Source: Escherichia coli (GTDB taxonomy: Bacteria > Pseudomonadota > Gammaproteobacteria > Enterobacterales > Enterobacteriaceae). From it: 64,000 nt of DNA. The position numbers were made by a program, and so were the translations under genes. The notes beneath the pieces were generated by a model. It was not told the DNA's origin, did no database searches, and saw nothing but the letters and a program-made list of their open reading frames with translations. This document shows positions 4,001 through 63,758 of this stretch, piece after piece (within the stretch, counting starts at the first letter, position 1; each line of letters starts with the position of its first letter). Location of the stretch: the NCBI RefSeq assembly GCF_024223415.1, contig NZ_CP100500.1; one strand, given 5' to 3'.

Positions 4001-4192
4001 GCTTGCACCTGGGTAAAGCGTGACTACCTGAATGGTCGGATAGTCCACTTCCGGCAGCGCCGAAACGGGCAGGGCGCGATAACCGATAATCCCGGCGAGT
4101 AAGATCGCCACCATCAGCAGCGTGGTGGCGACAGGACGCATAATAAACAGGCGAGACGGGCCGCCTGTGCTGCTCGGGGGTAACACCTGCAT
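1070..4192 (-). CDS. mdtB: RND multidrug efflux transporter MdtB
   Basis: 1040-aa [30 protein letters not shown]... with RND permease architecture; length matches MdtB. Confidence 0.95.
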
Positions 4193-5439
4193 CAGGAGCG
4201 TGCTCCTTTTTTCGCGTATTCGCGGCTGGTGGCTTTCTCTTCTGGAGTGGTGGCGCTCTGGGCTTCCACCACTTCCACTTTCGCCCCTTCGGTCAGGCGA
4301 TCAATGCCGTCTGTCACCACGCGATCGCCCGCAGAAATACCTGCACGGATCACCACTTTCTGACTGTCCTGAATGCCCGGCGTCACCAGATGTTTGCTGA
4401 CCTTGTTTTCACTATTCAGCACCCAGACAAAATGGCCTTCATTGCCCATTTGCAGGGCGGCTGATGGGATCACTACGGCGTTTTGTTCGGTGTCGACTAA
4501 CATGCGCGCGTTAACAAACTGATTGGGAAACAGCGCATCATCCTGATTATTAAAGCGTGCTTTCACTTTAATCGTACCGGTTGTGGCATCGATTTGGTTA
4601 TCGAGACTTAACAGCGTGCCTTCACTTAATTTCTTCGAGTTGGTGCGATCCCAGGCTTCTACCACCAGCGGTTTTCCGGCTTTCTGCGCCTGCACTACGG
4701 TAGCGATATCGCTTTCCGGCAGGGTAAAGACTAAATCGATAGGATGCGTCTGGGTGATCACCACGATCCCGGTGGTATCACCACTGGAGATTTGGTTACC
4801 AACATCAACCTGCTTGAGACCAACGCGACCATCGACTGGTGCGGTAATCCGGCTCCAGTCGAGTTGCAGCTGCGCGCTGGCAACGCTTGCTTCATCAGCC
4901 TTAATGGTGCCTTCGGTTTCACTGACCAGCGCCTGTTGGGCATCCAGCTCCTGGCGGGAAACGAGATTGGTTTTTGCCAGTTGTTGATAACGCGCCAGGT
5001 CACGGCGGGCGTTGGCAAGCGTGGCTTTATCTTTTGCCAGTTGGCCCTGGGCTTGTGCTAATGCAACTTTGAACTGGCTGGGGTCAATTTCTGCCAGTAA
5101 ATCGCCTGCTTTGACCTGCTGGCCTTCCTGGAAATGTAACGCTATCAGTTGGCCGTCCACGCGGCTGCGCACCGTAACGGTATTAGCGGCGGTAATGGTG
5201 CCAAGCCCGGTGAGGTAACGCGGAACTGCCTGTTCTACGGCGGTCGCCGCCTGAACCGGGGCTAATGGGCCGGAACGCATACCACGGCGACCACCCGCTG
5301 GCGATTGCTGCGCTTGTTTCGTCGCCCCTGGGGCTGCACTCCGGGAGTCATTGCGGCCTTGCCAGAACCAGAATGCGGCGATGGCGGCGATAACCACCAC
5401 GATTACGATTACCCAACGGGATTTATAACTGCCTTTCAT
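4192..5439 (-). CDS. mdtA: Efflux membrane fusion protein MdtA
   Basis: ORF track 4192..5586; start trimmed to the ATG giving [16 protein letters not shown]... (415 aa), HlyD-like periplasmic adaptor; stop overlaps the mdtB start. Confidence 0.9.
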
Positions 5440-5689
5440 CGTTAAGAGTTTCTCTTCCTGAAACGTTTCGCGGAATGATACTAGTGTAGCCAGCCAATAA
5501 GGGAGAAAAATGGAGGAATTATGAAACACTATCGGGAATCGTCTGAATGGCGGGCACATTTGCGAGCACGCATCCAGTAATAACACAGGAAACTATTTTA
5601 TCTACGCGTTAGCGATAGACTGCATACAGGGCGAAAGGAGGTAAGCCGCAGATTTCAGCCGGATGCTGAAACGGGAAAGCCCCTCCCGA

Positions 5690-5835
5690 GGAAGGGGCCT
5701 TAAATAAGGAAAGGGTCATGATGAAGCTACTCATCATCGTGGTGCTCTTAGTGATTAGCTACCCAGCATACTAAGACTACCAGGGCGGGGGAAACCCCGC
5801 TCTACCCTCACTCCTGAAAGTATGCCTTCACGATA
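5690..5835 (-). ncRNA. sib: Sib antisense sRNA (antitoxin) of ibs copy 1; boundaries approximate
   Basis: Established architecture of ibs/sib loci: a ~140-nt antisense RNA spans the toxin ORF. Ends not determinable from sequence alone. Confidence 0.4.
5718..5774 (+). CDS. ibs: Ibs-family type I toxin peptide, copy 1 (MMKLLIIVVLLVISYPAY)
   Basis: 18-codon hydrophobic ORF with the MMK start typical of Ibs toxins; preceded by aggaaagg SD-like sequence. Confidence 0.75.
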   Translation: MMKLLIIVVLLVISYPAY

Positions 5836-6017
5836 AGATTGTCAATCCGCAGGATTTGCCGTCTGCGATCCTGCCAGCAAAAATTCTTTGCGAGACGTTA
5901 CGCAATAATCACACTGGAAACTATTTTATCTGCAAGTCAGCGATAGACTAAGTGCATGGCGAAAGGAGGTAAGCCGACGATTTCAGCGGGACGCTGAAAC
6001 GGGAAAGCCCCTCCCGA

Positions 6018-6163
6018 GGAAGGGGCCTTAAATAAGGAAAGGGTCATGATGAAGCTACTCATCATCGTGGTGCTCTTAGTCATAAGCTTCCCCGCTTACT
6101 AAGACTACCAGGGCGGGGGAAACCCCGCTCTACCCTCACTCCTGAAAGTATGCCTTCACGATA
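6018..6163 (-). ncRNA. sib: Sib antisense sRNA of ibs copy 2; boundaries approximate
   Basis: Same repeat unit as copy 1. Confidence 0.4.
6046..6102 (+). CDS. ibs: Ibs-family type I toxin peptide, copy 2 (MMKLLIIVVLLVISFPAY)
   Basis: 18-codon ORF; sequence as I recall IbsB. Confidence 0.8.
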   Translation: MMKLLIIVVLLVISFPAY

Positions 6164-6347
6164 AGATTGTCAATCCGCAGGCTTTGTAGTCTGCGATCCT
6201 GCCAGCAAATATTCTTTGCGAGTCGTTACGCAATAATCACAGAGGAAACTATTTTATTCACGCGTTAGCGATAGCCTGCATTCAGGGCGAAAGGAGGTAA
6301 GCCGATGATTTCAGCGGGACGCTGAAACGGGAAAGCCTCTCCCGGAG

Positions 6348-6495
6348 AAGAGGGCTTTTAATAAGGAAAGGGTTATGATGAAGCACGTCATCATACTGGT
6401 GATACTCTTAGTGATTAGCTTCCAGGCTTACTAAGAACACCAGGGGGAGGGGGAAACCTCTCCCTAACCCTCACTCCTGAAATTATGTCACTCCG
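6348..6495 (-). ncRNA. sib: Sib antisense sRNA of ibs copy 3; boundaries approximate
   Basis: Same repeat unit as copy 1. Confidence 0.4.
6375..6434 (+). CDS. ibs: Ibs-family type I toxin peptide, copy 3 (MMKHVIILVILLVISFQAY)
   Basis: 19-codon ORF, IbsA-like. Confidence 0.8.
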   Translation: MMKHVIILVILLVISFQAY

Positions 6496-6654
6496 CCCTT
6501 AGTGTCAATCGACGGCTCTCCGTTCTTGCGAGGCGAATAGCAAAATTTTCTGCGCCGCCGGGCCTAATTCTGAAAGTTTCTTCGTTTGCTCTTATTTCAT
6601 TATTGCAGTCGGTATGATACCGGACCTCAATAATTCTCTAAGAAAGGATTTCTT

Positions 6655-7314
6655 ATGAGCGAACAAATCACGTTTGCCACCAGCGATTTTGCCAGTAACC
6701 CGGAACCACGTTGCCCCTGCATTTTGCTGCTGGATGTTTCTAGCTCGATGAGCGGCAGACCCATTAATGAACTTAACGCCGGATTGGTTACCTTTCGCGA
6801 TGAGCTGCTTGCCGATTCGCTGGCCTTAAAAAGAGTGGAACTCGGTATTGTGACGTTCGGCCCGGTGCATGTGGAACAACCCTTTACCAGCGCCGCTAAC
6901 TTTTTCCCGCCCATCCTGTTTGCCCAGGGGGATACGCCAATGGGGGCCGCCATTACCAAAGCCCTGGATATGGTTGAAGAGAGGAAACGTGAGTACCGCG
7001 CAAATGGTATTTCGTATTATCGCCCGTGGATTTTCCTGATCACCGATGGCGCTCCAACCGATGAGTGGCAGGCTGCCGCCAACAAAGTGTTTCAGGGGGA
7101 AGAAGATAAGAAATTTGCCTTCTTTTCCATCGCTGTTCAGGGGGCGGATATGAAGACGCTGGCACAAATCAGCGTTCGTCAGCCTTTGCCTCTGCAAGGA
7201 TTACAATTCCGTGAACTGTTTAGCTGGTTATCCAGTTCGCTGCGTTCGGTTTCCCGCTCCACGCCGGGAACGGAAGTTGTGCTGGAAGCGCCAAAAGGCT
7301 GGACGTCAGTGTGA
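6655..7314 (+). CDS. yegL: von Willebrand factor A (vWA) domain protein YegL
   Basis: 219 aa; [15 protein letters not shown] is a vWA MIDAS-like DxSxS motif; first gene of the triad. Confidence 0.9.
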
Positions 7315-8072
7315 GCTGGCGTCTGGTTTATGCATCCGCTGTTGGAACGTCGCACATTAGCGCTGATTTACCTTGTCAGGATGCCTGCCAGATGCAGGTT
7401 GCCTGGTTAAACGATCAGCAACCATTACTGGTGATGTTTCTTGCTGATGGTGCAGGCAGCGTCTCGCAGGGTGGCGAAGGCGCGATGCTCGCCGTCAATG
7501 AAGCGATGGCTTATATGTCGCAAAAAGTGCAGGGTGGGGAATTGGGGCTTAATGATATCCTCGCCACGGATATTGTGCTGACTATTCGTCAGCGACTTTT
7601 TGCCGAGGCGGAAGCCAAAGAATTAGCAGTTCGCGATTTTGCCTGCACGTTTCTGGGATTGATTTCATCGGCTAATGGCACCTTGATTATGCAGATTGGC
7701 GATGGCGGCGTGGTGGTGGATTTTGGTCACGGTCTGCAATTGCCGCTTACGCCGATGGTGGGTGAATATGACAATATGACGCACTTCATTACCGATGAAG
7801 ATGCCGTTTCCAGACTGGAAACTTTCACCAGCACTGAGCGTGTGCATAAAGTTGCAGCATTTACGGATGGTATCCAGCGACTGGCGTTAAATATGCTGGA
7901 TAATTCTCCTCATGTACCTTTCTTTACCCCGTTTTTCAATGGACTGGCGTCAGCAACGCAGGAACAACTCGATTTATTACCTGAATTGTTAAAGCAGTTT
8001 TTGTCCAGCCCGGCGGTAAACGAGCGTACGGATGATGATAAAACGTTGGCACTGGCGCTGTGGTTACCATGA
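7311..8072 (+). CDS. pphC: PP2C-family Ser/Thr protein phosphatase PphC (YegK)
   Basis: 253 aa; GTG start overlaps the yegL stop (GTGA); PP2C-like features ([15 protein letters not shown]). Confidence 0.88.
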
Positions 8073-10009
8073 AACCCACTTTATATACTGCTACTGGTGA
8101 GTGCGTTACGCCAGGCCGTGAACTGGGCAAAGGCGGTGAAGGCGCGGTTTATGATATCAATGAGTTTGTCGATAGCGTCGCCAAGATTTATCACACGCCG
8201 CCACCCGCCTTAAAACAGGACAAACTTGCCTTTATGGCTGCGACAGCTGACGCGCAATTGTTGAATTATGTCGCCTGGCCGCAGGCAACGCTTCACGGTG
8301 GACGAGGCGGAAAAGTTATCGGTTTTATGATGCCAAAAGTTTCTGGTAAAGAACCGATTCATATGATCTATAGCCCGGCACATCGTCGTCAACGTTACCC
8401 TCATTGTGCGTGGGATTTTCTACTCTATGTTGCGCGCAATATTGCTTCATCTTTTGCTACGGTTCACGAGCACGGGCACGTCGTGGGTGACGTAAACCAG
8501 AACAGTTTTATGGTAGGTCGCGACAGCAAAGTGGTACTGATTGATAGCGACTCCTTTCAGATTAACGCCAATGGCACACTGCATTTATGCGAAGTCGGCG
8601 TGTCGCATTTTACGCCGCCAGAGCTACAAACCTTGTCGTCATTTGTCGGCTTTGAACGCACAGAAAATCACGATAATTTTGGCCTTGCGTTGCTGATTTT
8701 TCACGTCTTGTTTGGTGGCCGGCATCCTTATTCTGGTGTGCCGCTTATCTCTGATGCGGGTAATGCGCTGGAGACGGATATTACCCATTTCCGTTATGCC
8801 TACGCGTCAGATAATCAGCGACGTGGTTTAAAACCGCCGCCACGATCGATTCCGCTATCGATGTTACCGAGTGATGTTGAAGCCATGTTTCAGCAGGCAT
8901 TCACGGAAAGTGGCGTGGCAACCGGGCGTCCGACGGCTAAAGCGTGGGTAGCGGCACTTGATTCTCTGCGCCAACAGTTAAAGAAATGTCCCGTTTCGGC
9001 AATGCATGTTTATCCCGCTCATTTGACCGACTGCCCGTGGTGTGCGCTGGATAATCAAGGCGTTATCTATTTTATTGATCTCGGCGAAGAGGTCATTACC
9101 ACCGGCGGGGATTTTGTGCTGGCAAAAGTCTGGGCGATGGTGATGGCGTCAGTAGCACCGCCAGCATTGCAACTGCCATTACCCGATCATTTCCAACCGA
9201 CTGGCAGGCCGCTTCCTTTAGGCCTGTTACGGCGCGAATACATCATTCTGCTTGAGATCGCACTGTCAGCATTATCGCTGCTGCTTTGCGGCCTTCAGGC
9301 AGAACCGCGTTATATTATTTTGGTTCCTGTGCTGGCGGCTATCTGGATTATTGGCAGTCTGACAAGCAAAGCGTACAAAGCAGAAGTTCAGCAACGCCGT
9401 GAGGCATTTAATCGTGCGAAAATGGACTATGACCATTTAGTCCGCCAGATCCAGCAGGTAGGCGGCCTGGAAGGTTTTATCGCCAAACGGACGATGCTCG
9501 AAAAAATGAAGGACGAAATTCTCGGGTTACCGGAAGAAGAGAAACGCGCTCTGGCAGCACTTCATGACACTGCAAGGGAACGGCAGAAGCAGAAGTTTCT
9601 GGAGGGATTTTTTATTGATGTTGCCTCTATTCCCGGCGTTGGCCCTGCGCGTAAAGCGGCGTTACGGTCTTTTGGTATTGAAACAGCCGCAGATGTTACC
9701 CGTCGTGGCGTTAAGCAAGTGAAAGGGTTTGGCGACCATCTGACCCAGGCGGTTATCGACTGGAAAGCGAGCTGTGAACGCCGTTTTGTGTTCAGGCCGA
9801 ATGAAGCGATAACGCCAGCAGACAGACAAGCGGTAATGGCGAAAATGACCGCCAAACGACATCGGCTGGAATCGACGTTGACTGTCGGCGCGACAGAGTT
9901 GCAGCGATTCCGCCTTCATGCTCCAGCACGGACCATGCCGTTGATGGAACCTTTACGTCAGGCGGCAGAAAAACTGGCTCAGGCGCAGGCAGATTTAAGC
10001 CGCTGCTGA
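8069..10009 (+). CDS. yegI: Ser/Thr protein kinase-like membrane protein YegI
   Basis: ORF track starts at GTG 8060; the ATG at 8069 overlaps the pphC stop (ATGA). Kinase-like N-terminal region, hydrophobic segment near residues 390-430, C-terminal helix-hairpin-helix motif (IPGVGPARKAALRSFGI). Confidence 0.85.
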   Translation: MKPTLYTATGECVTPGRELGKGGEGAVYDINEFVDSVAKIYHTPPPALKQDKLAFMAATADAQLLNYVAWPQATLHGGRGGKVIGFMMPKVSGKEPIHMIYSPAHRRQRYPHCAWDFLLYVARNIASSFATVHEHGHVVGDVNQNSFMVGRDSKVVLIDSDSFQINANGTLHLCEVGVSHFTPPELQTLSSFVGFERTENHDNFGLALLIFHVLFGGRHPYSGVPLISDAGNALETDITHFRYAYASDNQRRGLKPPPRSIPLSMLPSDVEAMFQQAFTESGVATGRPTAKAWVAALDSLRQQLKKCPVSAMHVYPAHLTDCPWCALDNQGVIYFIDLGEEVITTGGDFVLAKVWAMVMASVAPPALQLPLPDHFQPTGRPLPLGLLRREYIILLEIALSALSLLLCGLQAEPRYIILVPVLAAIWIIGSLTSKAYKAEVQQRREAFNRAKMDYDHLVRQIQQVGGLEGFIAKRTMLEKMKDEILGLPEEEKRALAALHDTARERQKQKFLEGFFIDVASIPGVGPARKAALRSFGIETAADVTRRGVKQVKGFGDHLTQAVIDWKASCERRFVFRPNEAITPADRQAVMAKMTAKRHRLESTLTVGATELQRFRLHAPARTMPLMEPLRQAAEKLAQAQADLSRC

Positions 10010-10020
10010 GCCATTTTCTT

Positions 10021-11373
10021 TTAACGAAACACCACTTCCGCCCAGCGTGCCAGCCCGGCGGTGACGGAGCCAAAGTCATCGCCGCCTGCAATCGGAATTC
10101 CCGGCAACTGTTCTGCCAGCGCTTTTTTAATCAGCGGCGAACGGGCGCTACCGCCGGTCAGGTAGATAACGTCCGGTTTTTCCTGGGCGTTATCCAGGGC
10201 CAGTTGCACCTGTTCCAGAATCCGCGCCAGTGGCTGGCTGAGGGCGCTTTCCAGCCCTTGCTGGCTAATCAGCGTAGCCAGTTCATCGCTGATAAACGGC
10301 AGTGAGGCGCGGGTTTCCGCTACGCTTGAAAGAGCAATTTTGCACTCTTCTGCGCTACGCACCAGGCGATAGCTTAAACGCTGACGCCAGACTTTCTGTA
10401 GCAGGGCCACTTTTTCCGGTTCGCGGGCATCGCGTACCAGATCGTTAAGCAGACGACCGTTGGCACTACTGTAGAAATCACTCTGCGCAGGTACGTCGTT
10501 GATGGCAACCGCATTCCACCACGGCAGAATCGGCAGGGCGATGCCTTTTTCGGTTTCGCCACCCATGCCCAGTAACGGCATCAGGTTTTTAAACGCCAGT
10601 GCGATGTCCAGATCGTTACCGCCAATACGGCAACCACTGTGACCCAGCAGGCTGGCTTCACGATCGAGACGCGAACGCCACTGCGGCCCCATCAGCAGCA
10701 ATGAACAGTCAGTCGTACCACCGCCGATATCCACCACCAGCACCCGTTTTTCTTCCTGCAAGGTGGCTTCGTAATCCAGCCCAGCCGCGACCGGCTCGTA
10801 CTGGAATACCACGTCCCTGAATCCGGCACGCTTCGCCGCGCGTTCCAGAATCCCTTGCGCCTGGGCGTTTGCTTCATCGCCGCCCAGCCCCTGGAAGTTG
10901 ATCGGGCGACCAATCACCGCCTGAGTAATCGCTTCTGGCAGCTGCGCCTGCGCCTGCTGGCGAATGTGCAACATCATTGCGCAGACCAGATCCTCAAACA
11001 GCGCTACCTGCTGCGGTTTTAAGCCGCTGGCACCGAGGAACGATTTTGGTGATTTCACAAACCACACTTCTTCTGGATCATCAATGTACTGTGCCAGTGA
11101 GGAAAGACCGAACTGCACGCTTTTCGCCGTAACATCGATATCTTCTTCGCGGTTATAACGAATCGCCCGACGTAACAGCGCCTGCGTTTCATCGTCGTCT
11201 GCCGGAACATCATGATGGCGGTACAGCCATTCACTTACTGCTTCACGCGTTGGCGCGCAAAGCATTGAAGGCAGCAGCGTGCTGTCGTTTTCCATTTTCA
11301 GTAATTGCGGTTTACCGTCACGCATGACCGCCACTGAACAGTTTGCTGTACCGTAATCAAAACCAATAAACAC
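10021..11373 (-). CDS. yegD: Hsp70/DnaK-like chaperone homolog YegD
   Basis: 450 aa; MFIGFDYGTANCSVA... actin/Hsp70 ATPase fold signatures (DIGGGTTD). Confidence 0.9.
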   Translation of the reverse strand: MFIGFDYGTANCSVAVMRDGKPQLLKMENDSTLLPSMLCAPTREAVSEWLYRHHDVPADDDETQALLRRAIRYNREEDIDVTAKSVQFGLSSLAQYIDDPEEVWFVKSPKSFLGASGLKPQQVALFEDLVCAMMLHIRQQAQAQLPEAITQAVIGRPINFQGLGGDEANAQAQGILERAAKRAGFRDVVFQYEPVAAGLDYEATLQEEKRVLVVDIGGGTTDCSLLLMGPQWRSRLDREASLLGHSGCRIGGNDLDIALAFKNLMPLLGMGGETEKGIALPILPWWNAVAINDVPAQSDFYSSANGRLLNDLVRDAREPEKVALLQKVWRQRLSYRLVRSAEECKIALSSVAETRASLPFISDELATLISQQGLESALSQPLARILEQVQLALDNAQEKPDVIYLTGGSARSPLIKKALAEQLPGIPIAGGDDFGSVTAGLARWAEVVFR

Positions 11374-11506: not shown

Positions 11507-12355
11507 ATGTATACCCTGAACTGGCAGCCGCCGTATGACTGGTCGTGGATGTTGGGATTTCTCGCCGCCCGTGCGGTGAGTGGTGTGGAAACGGTCGCTG
11601 AGGATTATTATGCCCGTAGTCTGGCGGTGGGCGAATATCGCGGCGTGGTGACTGCTATTCCGGATATAGCCCGCCATACTCTGCACATAAATTTAAGTGC
11701 AGGTTTAGAACCCGTTGCCGCTGAGTGTCTGGCGAAAATGAGCCGCCTGTTTGATCTGCAATGTAACCCGCAGATTGTTAACGGTGCGTTGGGCAAGTTA
11801 GGCGCGGCGCGGCCCGGATTGCGTTTACCCGGCTGTATTGATGCTTTTGAGCAGGGTGTGCGGGCGATTTTAGGCCAACTGGTGAGCGTGGCGATGGCGG
11901 CAAAATTGACTGCCAAAGTTGTACAGCTTTATGGCGAACGGCTGGATGATTTTCCGGAGTATATCTGCTTCCCCACGCCTCAGCGGCTGGCAGCAGCCGA
12001 CCCGCAGGCATTAAAAGCGTTAGGCATGCCGTTGAAACGGGCAGAGGCACTGATTCATCTGGCAAATGCGGCGCTGGAGGGCAGCTTACCAATGACAATT
12101 CCGGGCGATGTGGAGCAGGCGATGAAAACGCTGCAAACTTTTCCGGGTATCGGGCGCTGGACGGCGAATTATTTCGCTTTGCGTGGCTGGCAGGCGAAAG
12201 ATGTTTTTCTGCCGGATGATTATCTGATTAAACAGCGATTTCCGGGGATGACACCGGCACAAATCCGCCGTTATGCCGAGCGCTGGAAGCCCTGGCGTTC
12301 TTATGCGCTGTTGCATATCTGGTATACGGAAGGCTGGCAACCAGACGAAGCATGA
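11507..12355 (+). CDS. alkA: 3-methyladenine DNA glycosylase II AlkA
   Basis: 282 aa, MYTLNWQPPYDWSWMLGFLAARAVSGVE...; HhH-GPD glycosylase (FPGIGRWTANYFALRG). Confidence 0.92.
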   Translation: MYTLNWQPPYDWSWMLGFLAARAVSGVETVAEDYYARSLAVGEYRGVVTAIPDIARHTLHINLSAGLEPVAAECLAKMSRLFDLQCNPQIVNGALGKLGAARPGLRLPGCIDAFEQGVRAILGQLVSVAMAAKLTAKVVQLYGERLDDFPEYICFPTPQRLAAADPQALKALGMPLKRAEALIHLANAALEGSLPMTIPGDVEQAMKTLQTFPGIGRWTANYFALRGWQAKDVFLPDDYLIKQRFPGMTPAQIRRYAERWKPWRSYALLHIWYTEGWQPDEA

Positions 12356-12463: not shown

Positions 12464-15400
12464 TCAGTTAATCGCGAAATAACTACTATTCACCAGCAAA
12501 TCCAGCGGTTGGGCATCGGCAATCACCTCACCATAAATCAGATCGACGCCGATGCCAGAAAGCGTATCCATCACTAAGGGTAAAACGACTGGCCCGGCGA
12601 TGGTTTTCATCCCGAGTCGCTGAGCGTGCCCCTGAATAATCGTAATCAGCATCTCATCCATCAAATTACCCTGCACGTTGGCGCATAACTCACCATCAAG
12701 TAGCAGGTAATCTGCCATATTCGCTTTCAGCGAGTTGAAGATTTGCAGATCGCGGCCCACCTGGCTGAGCACTATCCGACATCCCGCCAGCCGCAGTTTT
12801 TGCACGCTTTCTGCGTGATCTAAAATCGCTTCAGCCGGAATAATCAGATGTAATAACCGTGGTGGTAGAGGGCTATTTTCCAGCTGCTCAAGCAGATCAT
12901 TCACCAGCGTGGCGCTACTCAAACCGGCAACGGAAAGGGGGAGGGAGATGCTTATGCCTTTACTGGCAACCGCTTTTGCGGCCTGCTGGAAAAATTCGTG
13001 GAATACCCGGCGGTCAAGAGCATGGCTAAGCGCCGGATCGCTGAAGCTACGACGAAATGTTTGTTCATCAATAATCTCGCCTTCGCAACTCCAGAGCTTA
13101 AGTGAAATCAGCCACAAATTACGCGCTTCCGGGATCCGTGGCGAAGCGACACCGTGGGCGAGCATCATCAACTGATTCTCTTTAATCATCCGCCACTGTT
13201 CATCAAGCGACATCGCCGCCCGTTCGCTATGTGCGGCAGCTTGCTGCGGTTCGTAAACCGTCACCCGGCCCCGGCCACCATTTTTGGAGGCATAACAGGC
13301 GATATCAGCCTGCGACATCACTTCTGCCGCCTGATGATTGTTGTCATCAATCAAGGTAATCCCGGCACTGGCACCTACCCGATGCACACGGCCTTCCCAT
13401 ATAAAGTGATAGTCATTCACGGCACTGATAATGCGTGTAGCGATAAAACGCGCGCTTTCAACATTACAGTCTGGTAGCAGCAGACCAAATTCATCCCCAC
13501 CGAGTCGCGCCAGCACGTCGCTGGAACGCAGCATACTCAGCATTAACGACGCCAGTTCGCGCAGCAAAGCGTCACCCGCCGCATGCCCGGCGCTGTCATT
13601 CACCGCTTTAAAGCGATCAAGATCGATAAACACCAGGGCATGTCGCTGATGTGTACTGTTTACCGTTTGCAGCAGGATACGCAGTTGTTTCTCAAAACTG
13701 GCGCGGTTGGCGAGATGCGTCAGTGCATCATGGGAGGCGCTGTAGCTCAGCTGGCGCAGCATTTTGCGTGATTCGGTAACGTCCTGAATCACCAGAACCG
13801 AACCAATATTGCTGCCGTCCAGAGTACTTAACGGCGTAATACAGTAATGCACGTCGTAACTGCCGCCGCTCCGACAGTGCAACACCACATCTTGCTCGAT
13901 CGCGGAACGTGAGGTGTCGGCACTGTAAATGTTCTCCATTAATGGTCCGTTGTCGCCAAAAGTAATATGCAACACCGTCAGGAGCGGAACACCTAACGCT
14001 TCTTCCTGCGTCCAGCCGCTCATCTTCTCCGCCACTGGATTCATAAAGGTAATTTTCATCGCCATATCAATACAGACCACGGCTTCACCGATGGAATCAA
14101 GCGTAATGTGCAGGCGCTCTTTTTCCTGAAACAATGCCTCGTTAAGCTGTTTAACCTCAGTCATATCCATATTAATGCCGAGCAGGCGTTCGACTTCGCC
14201 TTCTTTATTCAGTACCCGGTTGGCGAGGGCGCGGATATGGCGGATGCCATCTTTCACGGCAATGCGAAATTCCAGCTTAAAGGGCGAGCGTGATTGCAAC
14301 GAATCACGAATCACTTTTTCGGCGTGTTGGCGATCTTCCGGCAATACACACTCGTACCACACCTGCCAGTTCGGTTTGATATGCGGAGGAATTTCATACA
14401 GCTCGAACATCCGCTTATCCCAGCTAAAAATATTCGGCTTCAACTCCCACTCCCAGATGCCAATCCCGCCCGCTTCGTTAGCCAGCGTGATGCGCTCCAT
14501 CAGTTGCTGATTGACCTGTTCGGTGCGTTTTAGCTCGTTAATGTCTTCAATCTGAGCGATAAAATAGAGCGGCGTGCCATCCGTGTGGCGCACCAGTGAG
14601 ACGGCAAGCAACGCCCAGACAACATCGCCATTGCGGTTGTAGTAGCGTTTTTCCATTGAATAGGTGTTTATTTCACCGCTTATCAGCTTTTCAACCTGTT
14701 GGAGATCTTTATTGAGATCCTCCGGCCAGGTCAGTTGCTGAAAGGTGAGTCCGCGCAGCTCTTCCTGACTGTACCCGAGAAACTGGCAGAGCGCTTTGTT
14801 GGTTTGCAGCCATTGTCCCTCGGTGCCCACTAACGCCATACCGATAGCGGAATATTCCATCGCGTTCCGAAAGTGGGTTTCGCTTTCGGAAATGTGTTTG
14901 CGTTCCGCACGAAAGGCATACATCACCATGGTCATGATGTTGGCGGGCAGCAGGATCAGCAAAAACGGTAGCCACGGCATATGGCTCATCAGGTACGTAC
15001 GCGGCGTAGCAAGCAGGGAGGGATCCGCGGCCATCATCAGCGACACCATCATCACCGTGGTAAGGAAGATCAAAAAGGCTTCCATTCGTGGCAGACGCAC
15101 GGCGCTCCACATCAACAGCACAATAATGAAAGTAAAAGGCCACGGCAGATACAGCATCGAAAGCCAGCTTAACGTCAGTGTGATGGCTAACGTGAGCAGC
15201 GACTCAAAAAGCAACCGTGGGTTGCGATGGCGCAGCAGATAGTGTGGTTTAAATAACAATCCCAGCGGCACCAGTGCCAGAGCGCCGATGGATTCTGACA
15301 GTACCCATATCAAAAATGCCCTGAGAGGATCGTCTCCGGGCGTCAGCAGGACAACCAGAACACCCCCCAACAGAGGCGGAACAATGGCGCTGCCGAGTGC

Positions 15401-15781
15401 CAGACGCAGCCAGTCAGCCAGATTTTGCAAGGGGTTATACCACGGCAGCAATTTACGTAGCAGCACTGCCCCGACCACGGCTTCAACAATATTGATGGTC
15501 GTCCAGGTCATGTTCAGCGAGCTGGTGGAAAAAAGCAGGATGGATGCGGCGATATTTCCCAGCGAACAGCTCAGCGCAATTCCCGGCCACATGCGCCCGG
15601 CATGGCGATAAAACGCCACCATCATGATGGACGTCGGGAACCACAGTGGGGCGAGTTGGGTGCCAAACTGCGAAAGCTCAAGCGAGAAAAGGGTAAAGAT
15701 AAACGAGACTAAACCTAAACTGACCAGGTGAAGCAGCGGGTGGGGCAGGGCAATTAATACATGCTGTGATTGTTTGCTCAT
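12464..15781 (-). CDS. dgcE: Membrane-anchored diguanylate cyclase/phosphodiesterase DgcE (YegE; MASE1-PAS-GGDEF-EAL)
   Basis: 1105 aa; N-terminal multi-TM region, PAS-like segments, GGDEF motif (ARLGGDEFGLLL) and a C-terminal EAL-like domain. Confidence 0.92.
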   Translation of the reverse strand: MSKQSQHVLIALPHPLLHLVSLGLVSFIFTLFSLELSQFGTQLAPLWFPTSIMMVAFYRHAGRMWPGIALSCSLGNIAASILLFSTSSLNMTWTTINIVEAVVGAVLLRKLLPWYNPLQNLADWLRLALGSAIVPPLLGGVLVVLLTPGDDPLRAFLIWVLSESIGALALVPLGLLFKPHYLLRHRNPRLLFESLLTLAITLTLSWLSMLYLPWPFTFIIVLLMWSAVRLPRMEAFLIFLTTVMMVSLMMAADPSLLATPRTYLMSHMPWLPFLLILLPANIMTMVMYAFRAERKHISESETHFRNAMEYSAIGMALVGTEGQWLQTNKALCQFLGYSQEELRGLTFQQLTWPEDLNKDLQQVEKLISGEINTYSMEKRYYNRNGDVVWALLAVSLVRHTDGTPLYFIAQIEDINELKRTEQVNQQLMERITLANEAGGIGIWEWELKPNIFSWDKRMFELYEIPPHIKPNWQVWYECVLPEDRQHAEKVIRDSLQSRSPFKLEFRIAVKDGIRHIRALANRVLNKEGEVERLLGINMDMTEVKQLNEALFQEKERLHITLDSIGEAVVCIDMAMKITFMNPVAEKMSGWTQEEALGVPLLTVLHITFGDNGPLMENIYSADTSRSAIEQDVVLHCRSGGSYDVHYCITPLSTLDGSNIGSVLVIQDVTESRKMLRQLSYSASHDALTHLANRASFEKQLRILLQTVNSTHQRHALVFIDLDRFKAVNDSAGHAAGDALLRELASLMLSMLRSSDVLARLGGDEFGLLLPDCNVESARFIATRIISAVNDYHFIWEGRVHRVGASAGITLIDDNNHQAAEVMSQADIACYASKNGGRGRVTVYEPQQAAAHSERAAMSLDEQWRMIKENQLMMLAHGVASPRIPEARNLWLISLKLWSCEGEIIDEQTFRRSFSDPALSHALDRRVFHEFFQQAAKAVASKGISISLPLSVAGLSSATLVNDLLEQLENSPLPPRLLHLIIPAEAILDHAESVQKLRLAGCRIVLSQVGRDLQIFNSLKANMADYLLLDGELCANVQGNLMDEMLITIIQGHAQRLGMKTIAGPVVLPLVMDTLSGIGVDLIYGEVIADAQPLDLLVNSSYFAIN

Positions 15782-19580: not shown

Positions 19581-21164
19581 TCACACCTCGTACTCCATCT
19601 CGCCATCCTTACGCAGCGGTATAATCTGCACCTTCTGCACGCGATGGCTTTCTACCTGCAACGTTTTAAGCAAATAATCCCCCACCTGAACTTCTTCGCC
19701 AGGTTTTGGAATACGCTGCAAATACTCCATCAACAGCCCGGCAATGGTGTGATATTCACGTTTTTCATCCAGCGGCAGCGGCACATATTGCACCAGATCC
19801 TCCAGCGGCATATGACCATTCGCCGTCCAGGAACCGTCCGCATTCTTCTGAATATCATGGCGGGCGTCGATCTCTTCCACTTCGTTCGGTAAGTTACCGG
19901 CAATGGTTTCAGTGACGTCACTTAATGTCACAATCCCTTCCACCGAGCCAAACTCATCCACCACAAAAGCAAAGTGCGTGCGGGCATTACGGAACTGCTC
20001 CAGGGCAGGTAACAACGGCAAGGTTTCCGGGAACACCAGCGGCTGGCGAATCAACACCCGCAGGTTGAGCGGTTCGCCGCGCAGAGACTGTTGTAGCAGG
20101 TCGATAACGTGAACAACACCGAGCAAATCTTCTGCGTCATCACCGTCGGTAACCACCAGCCGCGTATGCTGATTTCGCTCCAGCAACTGGCGGATCTCGT
20201 CTTCCGGCGCGTTGAGATCGATATGCTCAATATCGTGGCGCGACGTCATAATGCTGCTGACGGTACGCTGGTTAAGATTTAGTACCCGCTCAATCATCCG
20301 CCGTTCCTGCGGATTAAAGATCTGCTGGTTACCATGATCCACCAGCATGGACGCGGTTTCGGCGTCCAGTTCCGCATCTTCTTTTTGCCCGCTAAGCAGG
20401 CGCATTACCGCTTCGGTAGTCCGCTGGCGCAGCGTCTGGTTAGCGGAAAGAAAACGTCGCCGGTTAAAGATAGCCAACTGATTGAGCGCCTCGATCATCA
20501 CCGAGAAACCAATGGCAGCGTACAGGTAGCCTTTCGGAATGACGAAGCCGAAACCTTCTGCCACCAGGCTAAAGCCAATCATCAACAGGAAGCTTAAGCA
20601 GAGAATAACGATCGTCGGGTGACTGTTAACAAATTGCGTTAACGGCTTGCTGGCCATCAACATCAGGCTGATAGCGATAACCACGGCGGCCATCATGACC
20701 AGTAAATGGTCGACCATCCCGACGGCGGTAATCACTGAGTCGAGTGAGAAAATGGCGTCCAGTACCACAATTTGCGTCACCACGCCCCAGAACTTCGCAC
20801 CTTTGCGTTGTGTGGGATTATTGCTGTCTTTCCCTTCCAGCCGTTCGTTCAGCTCCATCGTGGCTTTGAACAACAGGAAGAAACCACCAAACAGCATGAT
20901 TAAGTCGCGGGCGCTAAAGGTAAACGAGCGGAAGCTGAACAGCGGTTGAGTCAGGGTGACCAGCCAGGAGATTGACGCCAGCAGTAACAGGCGCATTAAC
21001 ATTGCCAGCAGCAGCCCGGTAACCCGTGCGCGGTCACGCTGCTTCGGCGGTAGTTTTTCGGCGAGGATGGCAATAAAGACCAGGTTATCAATGCCGAGGA
21101 CCAGTTCGATCACAATCAGCGTGATTAACCCGGCCCAGATAGACGGATCGGCAATCCATTCCAT
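19581..21164 (-). CDS. yegH: TerC-family membrane protein with CBS and CorC/HlyC domains (YegH)
   Basis: ORF track 19581..21230 uses a TTG; trimmed to the ATG at 21164 giving [16 protein letters not shown]... (527 aa). Confidence 0.88.
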
Positions 21165-59586: not shown

Positions 59587-59752
59587 TTATTATCCTCTCT
59601 CAGGCTTGATTATAGCCAATCTTCATCTGGCATAACTGAAAGTTAAATCATACCGTTAGACAAGAAAAAAAGATAATCGGTATCAGTTCTAAACATGGCT
59701 GTTTTTTCTGGTAACGTGCTCATTTTACAATCAAAGATGTTCTAAACTGACT

Positions 59753-59848
59753 ATACAAGCCGACGTCATTATTTCCAACCGTATGACAGAAGAGCTTAAG
59801 GATGTGGCAGATAAGGTCTACACCCGCGATCTCTTTGGCAGTGACTAA
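59753..59848 (+). pseudogene. ugd: Remnant of a second ugd 3' end (last ~30 codons) downstream of gla
   Basis: Translates to [31 protein letters not shown], near-identical to the C-terminus of the intact ugd ([29 protein letters not shown]). Confidence 0.75.
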
Positions 59849-59994
59849 CATCTTGTTATCAGGGCGATTTTCGCCCTGATTGTCTTATGTTTCCTTTGTA
59901 ATAATTCATTGTTTTTATCATTTATCCTATAGCATTCATGGCGATTATTGCTAAACTATGGCGACTTAAAATTATTTCGTCCGTTAGGGTAATG

Positions 59995-60972
59995 ATGAGA
60001 GTAGAAAATAATAATCTTTCTGGGCAAAACCATGATCCGGAACAGATTGATTTGATTGATTTACTGGTTCAACTATGGCGCGGCAAGATGACTATCATCA
60101 TTTCTGTCATTGTGGCTCTTGCCCTGGCTATAGGGTATCTGGCCGTTGCCAAAGAAAAGTGGACTTCAACAGCTATCGTTACTCAACCTGATGTGGGGCA
60201 AATCGCTGGTTATAACAATGCCATAAATGTGATTTATGGTTCGGCAGCGCCGAAAGTGTCTGAGATCCAGTCGATGTTAATTGGTCGTTTCAGCACGACA
60301 TTTTCTGCATTAGCAGAAACGCTGGATAATCAGGAAGAACCTGAAAAACTGACCATTGAGCCTACCGTTAAAAATCAGTCATTACCTTTAGCGGTTTCTT
60401 ATGTCGGTGAAACACCTGAAGGTGCGCAGAAACAGCTGGCGCAGTATATCCAGCAAGTTGACGACCAGGTAAATGAAGATCTGGAAAAAGACCTGAAAGA
60501 CAACATCGCGCTGCGTATGAAAAACTTGCAGGATTCGCTGAAGACCCAGGAAGTGGTTGCGCAGGAGCAGAAAGATCTGCGTATCCGTCAGATTCAGGAA
60601 GCGTTGCAGTATGCGAATCAGGCGCAGGTGACAAAGCCACAGGTTCAGCAGACTGAAGATGTGACGCAAGATACGTTGTTCCTTTTGGGGAGCGAAGCGC
60701 TGGAGTCGATGATTAAGCATGAGGCGACCCGTCCGTTGGTGTTCTCATCAAACTACTATCAGACACGTCAAAACCTGCTGGATATCGAAAGCTTAAAGGT
60801 TGATGATCTTGATATTCATGCTTACCGCTATGTAATGAAACCGACGTTACCTATTCGTCGCGATAGTCCGAAAAAGGCAATCACCTTGATTCTGGCGGTG
60901 CTGCTGGGCGGCATGGTTGGCGCGGGGATTGTGCTGGGGCGTAACGCTCTGCGTAATTACAACACGAAGTAA
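59995..60972 (+). CDS. wzzB: O-antigen chain-length determinant WzzB (Cld)
   Basis: ORF track 59938..60972; likely start at the tandem ATGs 59992/59995 (MRVENNNLSGQNHDPEQIDLIDLLVQLWRGK); polysaccharide co-polymerase with two TM segments. Confidence 0.92.
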   Translation: MRVENNNLSGQNHDPEQIDLIDLLVQLWRGKMTIIISVIVALALAIGYLAVAKEKWTSTAIVTQPDVGQIAGYNNAINVIYGSAAPKVSEIQSMLIGRFSTTFSALAETLDNQEEPEKLTIEPTVKNQSLPLAVSYVGETPEGAQKQLAQYIQQVDDQVNEDLEKDLKDNIALRMKNLQDSLKTQEVVAQEQKDLRIRQIQEALQYANQAQVTKPQVQQTEDVTQDTLFLLGSEALESMIKHEATRPLVFSSNYYQTRQNLLDIESLKVDDLDIHAYRYVMKPTLPIRRDSPKKAITLILAVLLGGMVGAGIVLGRNALRNYNTK

Positions 60973-60994
60973 TCTTTTCGGTTTTAAAGAAAAA

Positions 60995-61027
60995 GGGCAG
61001 GGTGGTGACACCTTGCCCGTTTTTTTT
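60995..61027. terminator. Terminator hairpin between convergent wzzB and the his operon
   Basis: gggcagg-N9-ccttgccc stem followed by ttttttt on the plus strand and preceded by an A-run (T-run on the minus strand). Confidence 0.65.
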
Positions 61028-61068
61028 GCCGGATGCGACAACAATATCGCATCCGCTTACCCCGTAAC

Positions 61069-61673
61069 TCACTGATGCCGTTTACGCAGGTTCTCAATTA
61101 CCGTCGTTAAATCCAGATCCTGATCCTGTAACAGCACCAGCAGGTGATACATCAAGTCAGATGCCTCGTTGGTCAGTTCAAAGCGGTCATGCACCGTTGC
61201 GGCCAGTGCGGTTTCCACGCCTTCTTCGCCCACTTTCTGCGCAATGCGTTTGGTGCCGCTGGCATACAGTTTGGCGGTGTAGGAGGTTTCCGGGGCGGCA
61301 GATTTACGTTCGGCGAGTAGTTGTTCCAGTTGATACAGGAACAGCCACTGGTGAGCGGTGTCGCCGAAGCAGCTGCTGGTGCCTTTGTGGCAGGTTGGCC
61401 CGATGGGATTCGCCAGCACCAGTAATGTGTCGTTGTCGCAGTCCGGCGCAATATTTACTACGTTGAGGAAATTACCCGACGTTTCGCCTTTGGTCCACAG
61501 TCGCTGTTTAGTGCGCGAGAAGAAGGTGACTTTGCCGCTTTCGATGGTTTTGTCTAAGGCTTCCGGGTTCATATAGCCCAGCATTAGCACTTCGCCAGAT
61601 ACAGCGTGTTGCACAATCACCGGCATCAGACCGTCGGTTTTTTCCCAATCCAGTTCGCGACGTTGTTGTTCTG

Positions 61674-61680
<7 letters not shown>
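61069..61680 (-). CDS. hisI: Bifunctional phosphoribosyl-AMP cyclohydrolase / phosphoribosyl-ATP pyrophosphatase
   Basis: 203 aa; [25 protein letters not shown]. Confidence 0.95.

Positions 61681-63758
<2,078 letters not shown>

Follow-up and report, generated by a model that had tools for sequence, protein, structure and literature searches.

The yegL-pphC-yegI operon of Escherichia coli, a Ser/Thr kinase-phosphatase cassette with the architecture of TerY-P systems

Described TerY-P systems and the yegL-pphC-yegI locus

The name TerY-P is used in two senses, for the architectural class of the plasmid ter (tellurite resistance) clusters and for an experimentally validated anti-phage system. 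The latter was reportedly described by Gao et al. in 2020. The former, the TerY-phosphorylation triad of Anantharaman, Iyer and Aravind (2012), consists, as it is summarised in PMC11090510 and PMC4978471, of a von Willebrand A (vWA) protein resembling TerY, a PP2C phosphatase and a kinase with a C-terminal zinc ribbon. Here we compare with both the genes yegL, pphC and yegI, which occupy positions 6655-10009 of a 64,000-nucleotide stretch of E. coli DNA (contig NZ_CP100500.1; hereafter the window). A prediction made from the sequence of the window (the original prediction) had singled them out as a TerY-P-like triad and had noted that associations of vWA, PP2C and Ser/Thr kinase genes go by this name and are reported in some cases to confer phage resistance, on which the literature agrees. 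The best explanation of our results, which we hold at a probability of about one half, is that the genes form a single operon for a Ser/Thr phospho-switch that is complete in itself and belongs by its architecture to the TerY-P class, most likely one that answers foreign or damaged DNA. Such a response is favoured because of the ter/TerY-P kinship and the mobile, sometimes island-borne distribution of the cassette.

More specifically, the window holds three plus-strand open reading frames (ORFs), at 6655-7314 (219 aa, ATG start), 7311-8072 (253 aa, GTG start) and 8069-10009 (646 aa, ATG at 8069). The GTG start of pphC overlaps the TGA stop of yegL in GTGA at 7311-7314, and the ATG start of yegI overlaps the stop of pphC in ATGA at 8069-8072, confirming the reading frames and overlaps from which a single operon had been proposed. 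The RefSeq annotation of strain 181.1 (NZ_CP059907.1), which is 100% identical to the window over 6400-10300, gives the names yegL, pphC and yegI at identical coordinates; pphC is also called yegK, and the E. coli from which the window comes is not K-12. The object itself is already known, its genes, enzymology, topology and operon layout having been published (Rajagopalan & Dworkin), which the original prediction did not mention. YegI and PphC are among the few Ser/Thr kinase-phosphatase pairs of E. coli, and the published experimental papers on them mention neither TerY, nor a helix-hairpin-helix (HhH) domain, nor DNA binding. Added here are the placement of the locus relative to both senses of TerY-P, a structural model of the tail of YegI, and a view of how widespread and how invariant the cassette is.

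The ter archetype is represented by the IncHI2 plasmid NZ_MZ152091.1 (L005 in our numbering of loci), which encodes TerW, TerY1, TerX, TerY2, TerY3 (vWA plus TerY-C), a 545-aa PP2C and a 499-aa kinase. A tblastn search with YegL recovered the three TerY paralogues of ter plasmids (E 1e-15 to 1e-10), and in BLASTP YegL aligns with the IncHI2 TerY3 over aa 19-202 at 28% identity (E=7e-20). PphC matches the ter PP2C weakly (E=1e-5), and YegI matches the ter kinase both in BLASTP (E=3e-5) and in hhalign (E=1.5e-5, 79% probability, 319 columns). The two sets share the order vWA, PP2C, kinase. TerY3 and YegL align across the full vWA domain and a serine-rich tail, both phosphatases are of PP2C_2 type, and both kinases are fused to a zinc ribbon and are collinear over ~340 residues, from the P-loop through the CxxC ribbon. 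They differ in that TerY3 has an additional TerY-C metal-binding domain, which YegL lacks; that the ter PP2C (545 aa) carries a long N-terminal extension whereas PphC has 253 aa; that the ter kinase is soluble with a beta-rich end whereas YegI ends in a transmembrane (TM) hairpin, a stalk and a double HhH unit, (HhH)2; and that the ter set lies amid TerW/X/Z/A-E and genes of biosynthesis whereas yegL-pphC-yegI stands alone. With vWA-PP2C-kinase adjacency, a vWA protein of the TerY clade and a kinase-ribbon fusion all present, the operon belongs, by sequence comparison, to TerY-P in the architectural sense.

For the validated anti-phage system we took the example of E. coli G3/10 from Table S1 of Stokar-Avihail et al., located at 59618-62877 of NZ_CP060075.1 (L098 8200-11459) and encoding a VWA protein of 277 aa, a PP2C of 239 aa and an STK_OB kinase of 561 aa. 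As a positive control, these proteins score 572 (TerY), 358 (PP2C) and 878 (STK_OB) bits on the PADLOC models. On the same models YegL reaches 13 bits (E=0.013), PphC gives no match to PP2C up to E=10 and YegI gives no match to STK_OB; PADLOC and NCBIfam scans of the three triad proteins returned no TerY-P match. In direct comparison, the sequences are related at the limit of detection or below it: YegL aligns with the validated vWA protein over no more than 112 residues (E=0.005), a pairwise comparison of PphC with the validated PP2C detects no similarity (BLASTP E=1.2), and the YegI family profile meets the validated kinase in the kinase core only (hhalign E=1.8e-5). Both loci consist of three co-directional genes in the same order and follow the same domain logic, namely a DxSxS vWA protein, a PP2C, and a Ser/Thr kinase followed by a domain of nucleic-acid-binding type. 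In the validated kinase, however, the tail consists of an oligonucleotide/oligosaccharide-binding (OB) fold and a low-complexity region and lacks both a zinc ribbon and a TM segment, whereas that of YegI comprises ribbon, TM hairpin, stalk and HhH unit. The validated system also sits next to IS5 and a type I restriction-modification (R-M) system in a rare accessory island, present in 4-5 of 5,426 complete E. coli genomes, whereas yegL-pphC-yegI is a core locus; strains with TerY-P of the G3/10 type also carry yegL-pphC-yegI. These comparisons do not support a close kinship of the operon to the validated anti-phage TerY-P, and its resemblance to it is one of gene order and domain logic.

The predicted resemblance to TerY-P thus divides: homology to the ter cluster stands, led by the YegL-TerY3 match, and close kinship to the validated anti-phage system does not. 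The profile comparison that had been proposed as a check divides in the same way, since all three proteins miss the PADLOC models and all three match components of the ter cluster. Taking the PADLOC failure as absence of TerY kinship was considered and dropped, as TerY1-3, the PP2C and the kinase of ter plasmids fail these models too, which indicates that the models are narrow. In addition, a TerY-P variant missed by both PADLOC and DefenseFinder protected P. aeruginosa against Autographiviridae (Costa et al.). Given the narrow models and this variant, the failure lowers the probability that the operon is a TerY-P of the Gao type, and not the probability that it could work like one.

Other systems share parts of this design. 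ArnA and ArnB of Sulfolobus belong to a module of a vWA protein, a Ser/Thr kinase and a PP2C in which the vWA protein is itself a phospho-target. Deinococcus radiodurans DRA0331-0334 (bioRxiv 10.64898/2026.01.23.701218), compared here by layout only, likewise encode a vWA protein with a membrane kinase and a PP2C, and differ from the E. coli operon in the order of the genes, in an additional FHA protein and in a phosphatase that is much larger. PknB-PstP and PrkC-PrpC have in common with YegI/PphC the kinase fold, the membrane anchoring and a PP2C from the same operon that dephosphorylates the kinase; unlike them, YegI has no extracellular PASTA or other sensor domain, its catalytic and DSD loops are atypical, and it comes with a vWA partner gene that is obligatory and with an HhH stalk in the cytoplasm. 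TerY-P triads also occur inside CoCoNuT (McrBC-related) systems of types II and III-A (Bell et al. 2024, PMC11090510), where a TerY-like vWA protein and a PP2C accompany a kinase-ribbon fusion. YegI has a conserved ribbon after its kinase as well, to which it adds the membrane hairpin, the stalk and (HhH)2, and no CoCoNuT CnuB/C/E/H genes were seen in the surroundings of the E. coli locus, nor in any of the 80 related loci that we inspected.

Domains of YegL, PphC and YegI

The first gene, yegL (plus strand, 6655-7314), encodes a cytoplasmic protein that matches Pfam VWA at 1e-8. Its vWA metal-site motif had been noticed earlier and proves to be part of a complete metal ion-dependent adhesion site (MIDAS), D27-x-S29-x-S31, T94 and D131, each residue of which is kept in at least 96% of 56 relatives. 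In the alignment of these relatives two further elements are conserved, the motif NPEPRCPC in the N-terminal part and the C-terminal tail W-L-S193-x-S195-x-x-S198-V-S200-x-S202-x-P-G, with the tail serines kept at 80-96%; tail and MIDAS align in TerY3 as well. YegL clearly belongs to the TerY type of vWA proteins, its metal site is intact, and the conservation of this partner, serine tail included, equals that of the two enzymes. The product of pphC (plus strand, 7311-8072) matches PP2C_2 at 3.2e-50 over aa 11-220, a catalytic domain that places it in the PP2C (PPM) family. YegK/PphC has been characterised, together with a D46N mutant, as a Mn-dependent phosphatase of PP2C type (Rajagopalan & Dworkin, bioRxiv 10.1101/303594), which dephosphorylates YegI and differs in sequence and activity between B and K strains (bioRxiv 10.1101/303594).

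The third gene, yegI (plus strand, 8069-10009), encodes an inner-membrane Ser/Thr kinase. The layout predicted for it, a kinase-like N-terminal half, a hydrophobic segment and a C-terminal HhH motif, was borne out at each point. The kinase domain covers aa 1-301 (8069-8971). Pfam returns no significant kinase match for YegI alone, just a marginal HHH_5; Pkinase is matched by 31 of 39 variant relatives of YegI. The catalytic loop is atypical (VGDVNQNS), as are the HRD and Asn motifs, and DSD replaces DFG. Residues K39, D141, N143, D159, D161, S162, P184 and E185 are invariant in 60 relatives down to 33% identity, which also keep G22, E24, D202 and R287. In a full-length AlphaFold2 model (per-residue confidence, pLDDT, 92.2), the top Foldseek matches of this domain in the PDB are PknA/PknB (E about 2e-7, TM score 0.63-0.72), and its bilobal fold together with K39, D141 and D159 makes YegI a member of the Hanks-type Ser/Thr kinases. 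Experiments agree: YegI is an active Ser/Thr kinase despite DSD for DFG and its other deviations, with second-order kinetics consistent with dimerisation (bioRxiv 10.1101/819920), and it autophosphorylates Ser153/160/162, in its DSD activation segment, and two C-terminal serines (Rajagopalan & Dworkin).

Directly after the kinase, at aa 304-330 (8978-9058), YegI carries what conservation, modelling and the alignment with the ter kinase indicate to be a zinc-ribbon-like module, with metal binding predicted. C307, H313, C322, W324 and C325 are invariant in the 60 sequences down to 33% identity, and C307, H313, C322 and C325 are the candidate zinc ligands. The AlphaFold2 model shows small beta-hairpins at aa 304-316, and in sequence alignment the segment matches the CPYC ribbon of the kinase from the ter cluster.

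The hydrophobic segment forms a hairpin of two helices, at aa ~389-409 and ~418-436 by hydropathy and in the model (9233-9376), in agreement with the PhoA-LacZ fusions that established YegI as a two-pass inner-membrane protein with both termini in the cytoplasm (bioRxiv 10.1101/819920). Beyond it extends a cytoplasmic helical stalk (aa 437-646, 9377-10006), which AlphaFold2 builds at pLDDT 97 (aa 436-646) as long antiparallel helices bearing the HhH unit. The HhH peptide of the original prediction corresponds to aa 513-541, and the unit as now delimited spans aa 515-571 (9611-9781). HHH_5 matches YegI at an independent E-value of 0.0025 in the whole protein and 7e-5 in the excised region, and among 33 relatives it matches 10 at 0.001 or better and 24 at 0.1 or better. 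Two hairpins, G-V-G at aa 523-525 and G-F-G at aa 553-555, with helices at 526-534, 545-549 and 556-571 in the model, give two HhH motifs with G-h-G hairpins, as expected of an (HhH)2 module, and we regard the HhH assignment as sound. A profile of the region searched against PDB sequences matches REV1, Pol IV, archaeal L32e, ComEA, UvrC and the N-terminal domain of Rad51 (E 0.01-0.8); these weak matches are to DNA-binding (HhH)2 modules only, and the domain may, as proposed in the original prediction, bind nucleic acid. The conservation of YegI is lowest in the TM sequences, and the HhH hairpins are among its most conserved parts.

These data also bear on a rival explanation, in which YegI is an envelope or membrane sensor whose TM hairpin responds to, for example, membrane perturbation, while the HhH unit and stalk dimerise or dock proteins and YegL serves as a scaffold. 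The second-order kinetics fit dimerisation, and the stalk as a whole resembles coiled-coil stalks and not any DNA-binding protein: in a Foldseek search of the PDB with the C-terminal model nothing was significant (all E>0.1), the nearest structures being the dynein stalk and SMC arms. Some variant relatives, moreover, exchange the C-terminus for SH3 or TPR protein-interaction domains. Against this reading, the TM sequences are the least conserved part of the protein whereas its HhH hairpins rank among the most conserved, the best matches of the HhH profile are all DNA-binding modules, and the validated system places an OB fold at the analogous position. Membrane sensing is, to a lesser degree than the stress role weighed below, also a serious rival, and we consider it quite unlikely. 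The relatives that join a YegI-type kinase and ribbon to other C-termini (P0212, P0166, P0225, P0171 and others) carry SH3_3, TPR repeats, a topoisomerase-type zinc ribbon or SMC/LmuB-like coiled coils.

Under the preferred reading, a phospho-switch that answers foreign or damaged DNA, the (HhH)2 stalk would bind or sample double-stranded DNA near the inner membrane without sequence preference. DNA, a ligand of the YegL MIDAS or both could then promote YegI dimerisation and autophosphorylation; active YegI would phosphorylate the conserved serine tail of YegL and other targets, and PphC would reset the switch. The setting may be conflict with phages or mobile elements, or DNA stress, for an operon that would normally be near-silent. 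In a genome-wide screen, overproduction of YegL and, independently, of YegI raised endogenous DNA damage (Xia et al., bioRxiv 10.1101/354589), which gives indirect support for a link to DNA. On this analysis a role in defence or in DNA stress appears plausible.

Distribution and neighbourhoods of the cassette

Full-length relatives of YegI at 56-62% identity are found in Klebsiella, Piscinibacter, Chromobacterium and many metagenomes. When cluster representatives were searched exhaustively with YegI, 9,699 clusters passed E<=1e-3 and 3,249 passed E<=1e-30, and most of the top 150 clusters keep the ~645-aa architecture. A scan of GTDB with one genome per species yielded at least 569 relatives, and the best 80 loci were used for neighbourhood analysis. 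They include Beta-, Gamma- and Alphaproteobacteria, Georgenia, Chlorobiaceae, Acidobacteria, Pirellulales, Synergistaceae, Clostridiales, a cyanobacterium and about a dozen Methanoregula/Methanomicrobiales genomes; within these best 80 of at least 569 relatives, Enterobacteriaceae are represented by Escherichia and Klebsiella spallanzanii only. The methanogen cassettes (L052, L059, L060, L062, L063, L066, L067, L069, L083, L085 and L087), which lie in metagenome assemblies, have the order vWA-PP2C-YegI-like, with full-length YegI homologues at 34-37% identity, and point to transfer between bacteria and archaea.

Of the 71 loci that extend far enough upstream, 70 have homologues of YegL and PphC directly upstream of YegI and on its strand. 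Clustering of ~1,300 neighbouring ORFs from the 80 loci gave no conserved fourth (effector) gene; with the co-location, this makes the triad a self-contained mobile unit. Recurrent neighbours are lineage-specific (TetR, ABC transporter, LysR/OxyR, a two-component system, HrpA). Three apparent neighbour families were rejected as artefacts, being antisense ORFs over vWA and PP2C genes in GC-rich genomes. A search of 50,697 phage records for triad copies gave one weak partial match.

Among the neighbourhoods for which annotation was available, several resemble defence islands. SLFN-type helicase, McrA-like, HIT, SNase, BrxR and JetB genes accompany the Piscinibacter triad; AbiH, a KAP NTPase and a Tn7-like transposon that of Chromobacterium; GmrSD, SymE and type I R-M that of Klebsiella; and DUF262 and HxsABC that of a Rhizobium plasmid (L008). 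Mrr lies immediately downstream of the triad in one metagenome contig, type I R-M and Mrr lie directly downstream in another, and GmrSD, type I R-M and Abi_C are near it in a Bacillota-like contig. Other triads sit in ordinary chromosome or plasmid backbone. Linkage to ter genes or to DNA-processing or restriction modules, seen for L001, L002, L003, L008, L011, L012 and L099, is absent from the E. coli locus and from many other loci. A crude single-sequence scan, made without a background set, found restriction-type neighbours in 6 of 58 GTDB loci; on such a count we do not claim enrichment in defence islands, and the association of the cassette with them is suggestive.

This distribution invites a bolder proposal, in which the YegI-type cassette, with its TerY-like vWA protein, short PP2C and kinase of ribbon, hairpin, stalk and (HhH)2, makes up a branch of TerY-P immunity in its own right, very widely spread with thousands of clusters among bacteria and methanogenic archaea, missed by defence-finder models and sensing DNA at the inner membrane face, and is in E. 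coli a silent core immune or anti-plasmid module. We regard this proposal as unlikely and put it forward tentatively.

In Piscinibacter (L001 5932-6474) and in metagenome loci L102 and L103 (7917-8501), an SNase gene and a preceding ORF of ~70 aa stand directly upstream of the triad on the same strand; the SNase-like gene is possibly an accessory nuclease of one sub-lineage. L102 also holds DUF4236, a family present in the IncHI2 ter cluster (L005) too, and two radical-SAM genes that recall HxsBC beside the triad in L008. On the Pseudomonas megaplasmids pQBR103 and pZXPA-20-602k (L006 16543-17926, L007 13721-15931), a Y-family polymerase (umuC-like) gene and an HU gene are near the triad, and a second, ~740-aa 'helix-hairpin-helix domain-containing protein' adjoins the conjugation genes.

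Retention and possible role of the operon in E. coli

By megablast, segment 6400-10300 of the window was found in 5,417 of 5,426 complete E. coli genomes, and 5,400 of these genomes cover at least 80% of it, nearly always as a single copy per chromosome at 90-100% identity. Ratios of nonsynonymous to synonymous divergence (dN/dS), calculated pairwise among the window strain, Nissle 1917, an O157:H7 strain and DH1, are 0.04-0.08 for yegL, 0.08-0.19 for pphC and 0.13-0.22 for yegI, compared with about 0-0.09 for mdtA, mdtB and yegD and 0.10-0.28 for alkA. These low ratios indicate that all three triad genes are maintained by purifying selection, with pphC and yegI less constrained than most flanking genes. 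Synonymous divergence between the window strain and K-12 DH1 is 0.024-0.026 for mdtA/mdtB, ~0.20 for yegL and pphC, 0.07 for yegI and 0.05 for yegD. This jump (window 4192-10009) suggests an old recombination mosaic centred on yegL-pphC, which fits the reported differences between B and K PphC (bioRxiv 10.1101/303594). The GC content of the triad is 0.49-0.52 and that of its flanks 0.53-0.59; base composition was rejected as a mark of recent transfer, the contrast not being diagnostic.

The window has the compact, overlapping form of the operon. In 1,906 of the 5,426 genomes (35%), K-12 included, yegJ lies between pphC and yegI in opposite orientation (L097 6674-7398). The insertion has been described as confined to K strains (bioRxiv 10.1101/303594; a 2026 paper), and the pphC/yegI ATGA overlap as present in B strains and many pathogens (Rajagopalan & Dworkin). 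The split operon speaks for a further rival, in which the locus would be a silenced, slowly decaying, horizontally acquired cassette with no function in present E. coli. In the laboratory its expression is undetectable or very low (Rajagopalan & Dworkin), yegI mutations recur in the long-term evolution experiment (bioRxiv 10.1101/303594), and protein databases contain many truncated YegI entries. A cassette in decay would, however, hardly be retained in 5,400 of 5,426 genomes or show the above dN/dS values between distant phylogroups, its catalytic and metal-site residues are all intact, and the purified proteins are active (Rajagopalan & Dworkin). Because of this retention and selection we consider a dead remnant very unlikely.

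A number of observations weigh against a response to foreign or damaged DNA. The HhH scores are modest, and HhH units are also able to mediate protein contacts. The triad contains no effector domain (nuclease, NADase or pore), its proteins fail the PADLOC models, few of the loci scanned have restriction-type neighbours and many have ordinary ones (ABC transporters, LysR, two-component systems, HrpA). In E. coli the operon is a core locus at a fixed position with housekeeping genes on its flanks, which is unusual for defence systems, and the yegJ insertion in 35% of genomes indicates that tight co-translation is dispensable. To these points are added the laboratory silence of the operon, for which the 2026 paper still gives no inducing condition, and the result of our literature search, which found no published phage, stress or DNA-binding experiment on yegL-pphC-yegI.

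A serious rival is a chromosomal stress-signalling module unrelated to phage, which, like the TerY/PP2C/kinase set of the ter operon, would sense metal, xenobiotics or DNA damage, adjust physiology by phosphorylation and use the HhH stalk to tether the kinase to the nucleoid. YegL is far closer to the ter TerY3 (E=7e-20) than to the TerY of the validated system (E=0.005), the locus belongs to the core genome, keeps one position and is under purifying selection, and overproduction of YegL or YegI raises DNA damage. Its neighbours include alkA and the TerC-family gene yegH (~9.5 kb away); many relatives have housekeeping neighbours, among them a LysR regulator that resembles OxyR, seen in 5 loci, and LexA, seen in L100. 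Yet no stress phenotype or inducing condition is known for the operon, and the patchy spread over phyla and archaea, the plasmid copies and the restriction and Abi neighbours in several lineages look like a mobile conflict module. Within the best 80 of at least 569 relatives, moreover, Enterobacteriaceae have two representatives only. We therefore hold a non-phage stress role to be somewhat unlikely. If the defence reading is true, a core gene set in 99.5% of E. coli genomes joins the immune repertoire and a PADLOC-invisible family is added to it; if it is not true, the operon is a candidate for a switch in DNA or metal stress, with kinship to the ter system. What a kinase module of nearly all E. 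coli does in the cell can now be tested directly.

The locus is flanked on one side by three ibs/sib toxin-antitoxin copies and mdtABC, and on the other by the convergent yegD, followed by alkA and dgcE. Between the last ibs/sib copy and yegL lies a plus-strand leader (6509-6654) with a Shine-Dalgarno-like AAAGGA ~8 nt before the ATG, in which a plus-strand promoter scan upstream of yegL gave no consensus sigma-70 site. Directly upstream, three SIB antitoxin RNA genes stand in tandem on the minus strand (5703-6508; Rfam RF00113, 142-150 bits), each paired with a plus-strand ORF for an Ibs toxin (5718-5774, 6046-6102 and 6375-6434); DH1 and Nissle have two SIB copies at this locus and O157:H7 has three. 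The alkylation repair glycosylase gene alkA (11507-12355) is 1.5 kb downstream of the triad and yegH, for a TerC-family membrane protein, is at 19581-21164, ~9.5 kb downstream; the nearness of both to a TerY-like triad may be coincidence. Finally, dgcE (yegE) is an intact ORF of 1,105 aa in the window (12464-15781), whereas it is recorded as a pseudogene ('internal stop') in strain 181.1 and as frameshifted in O157:H7.

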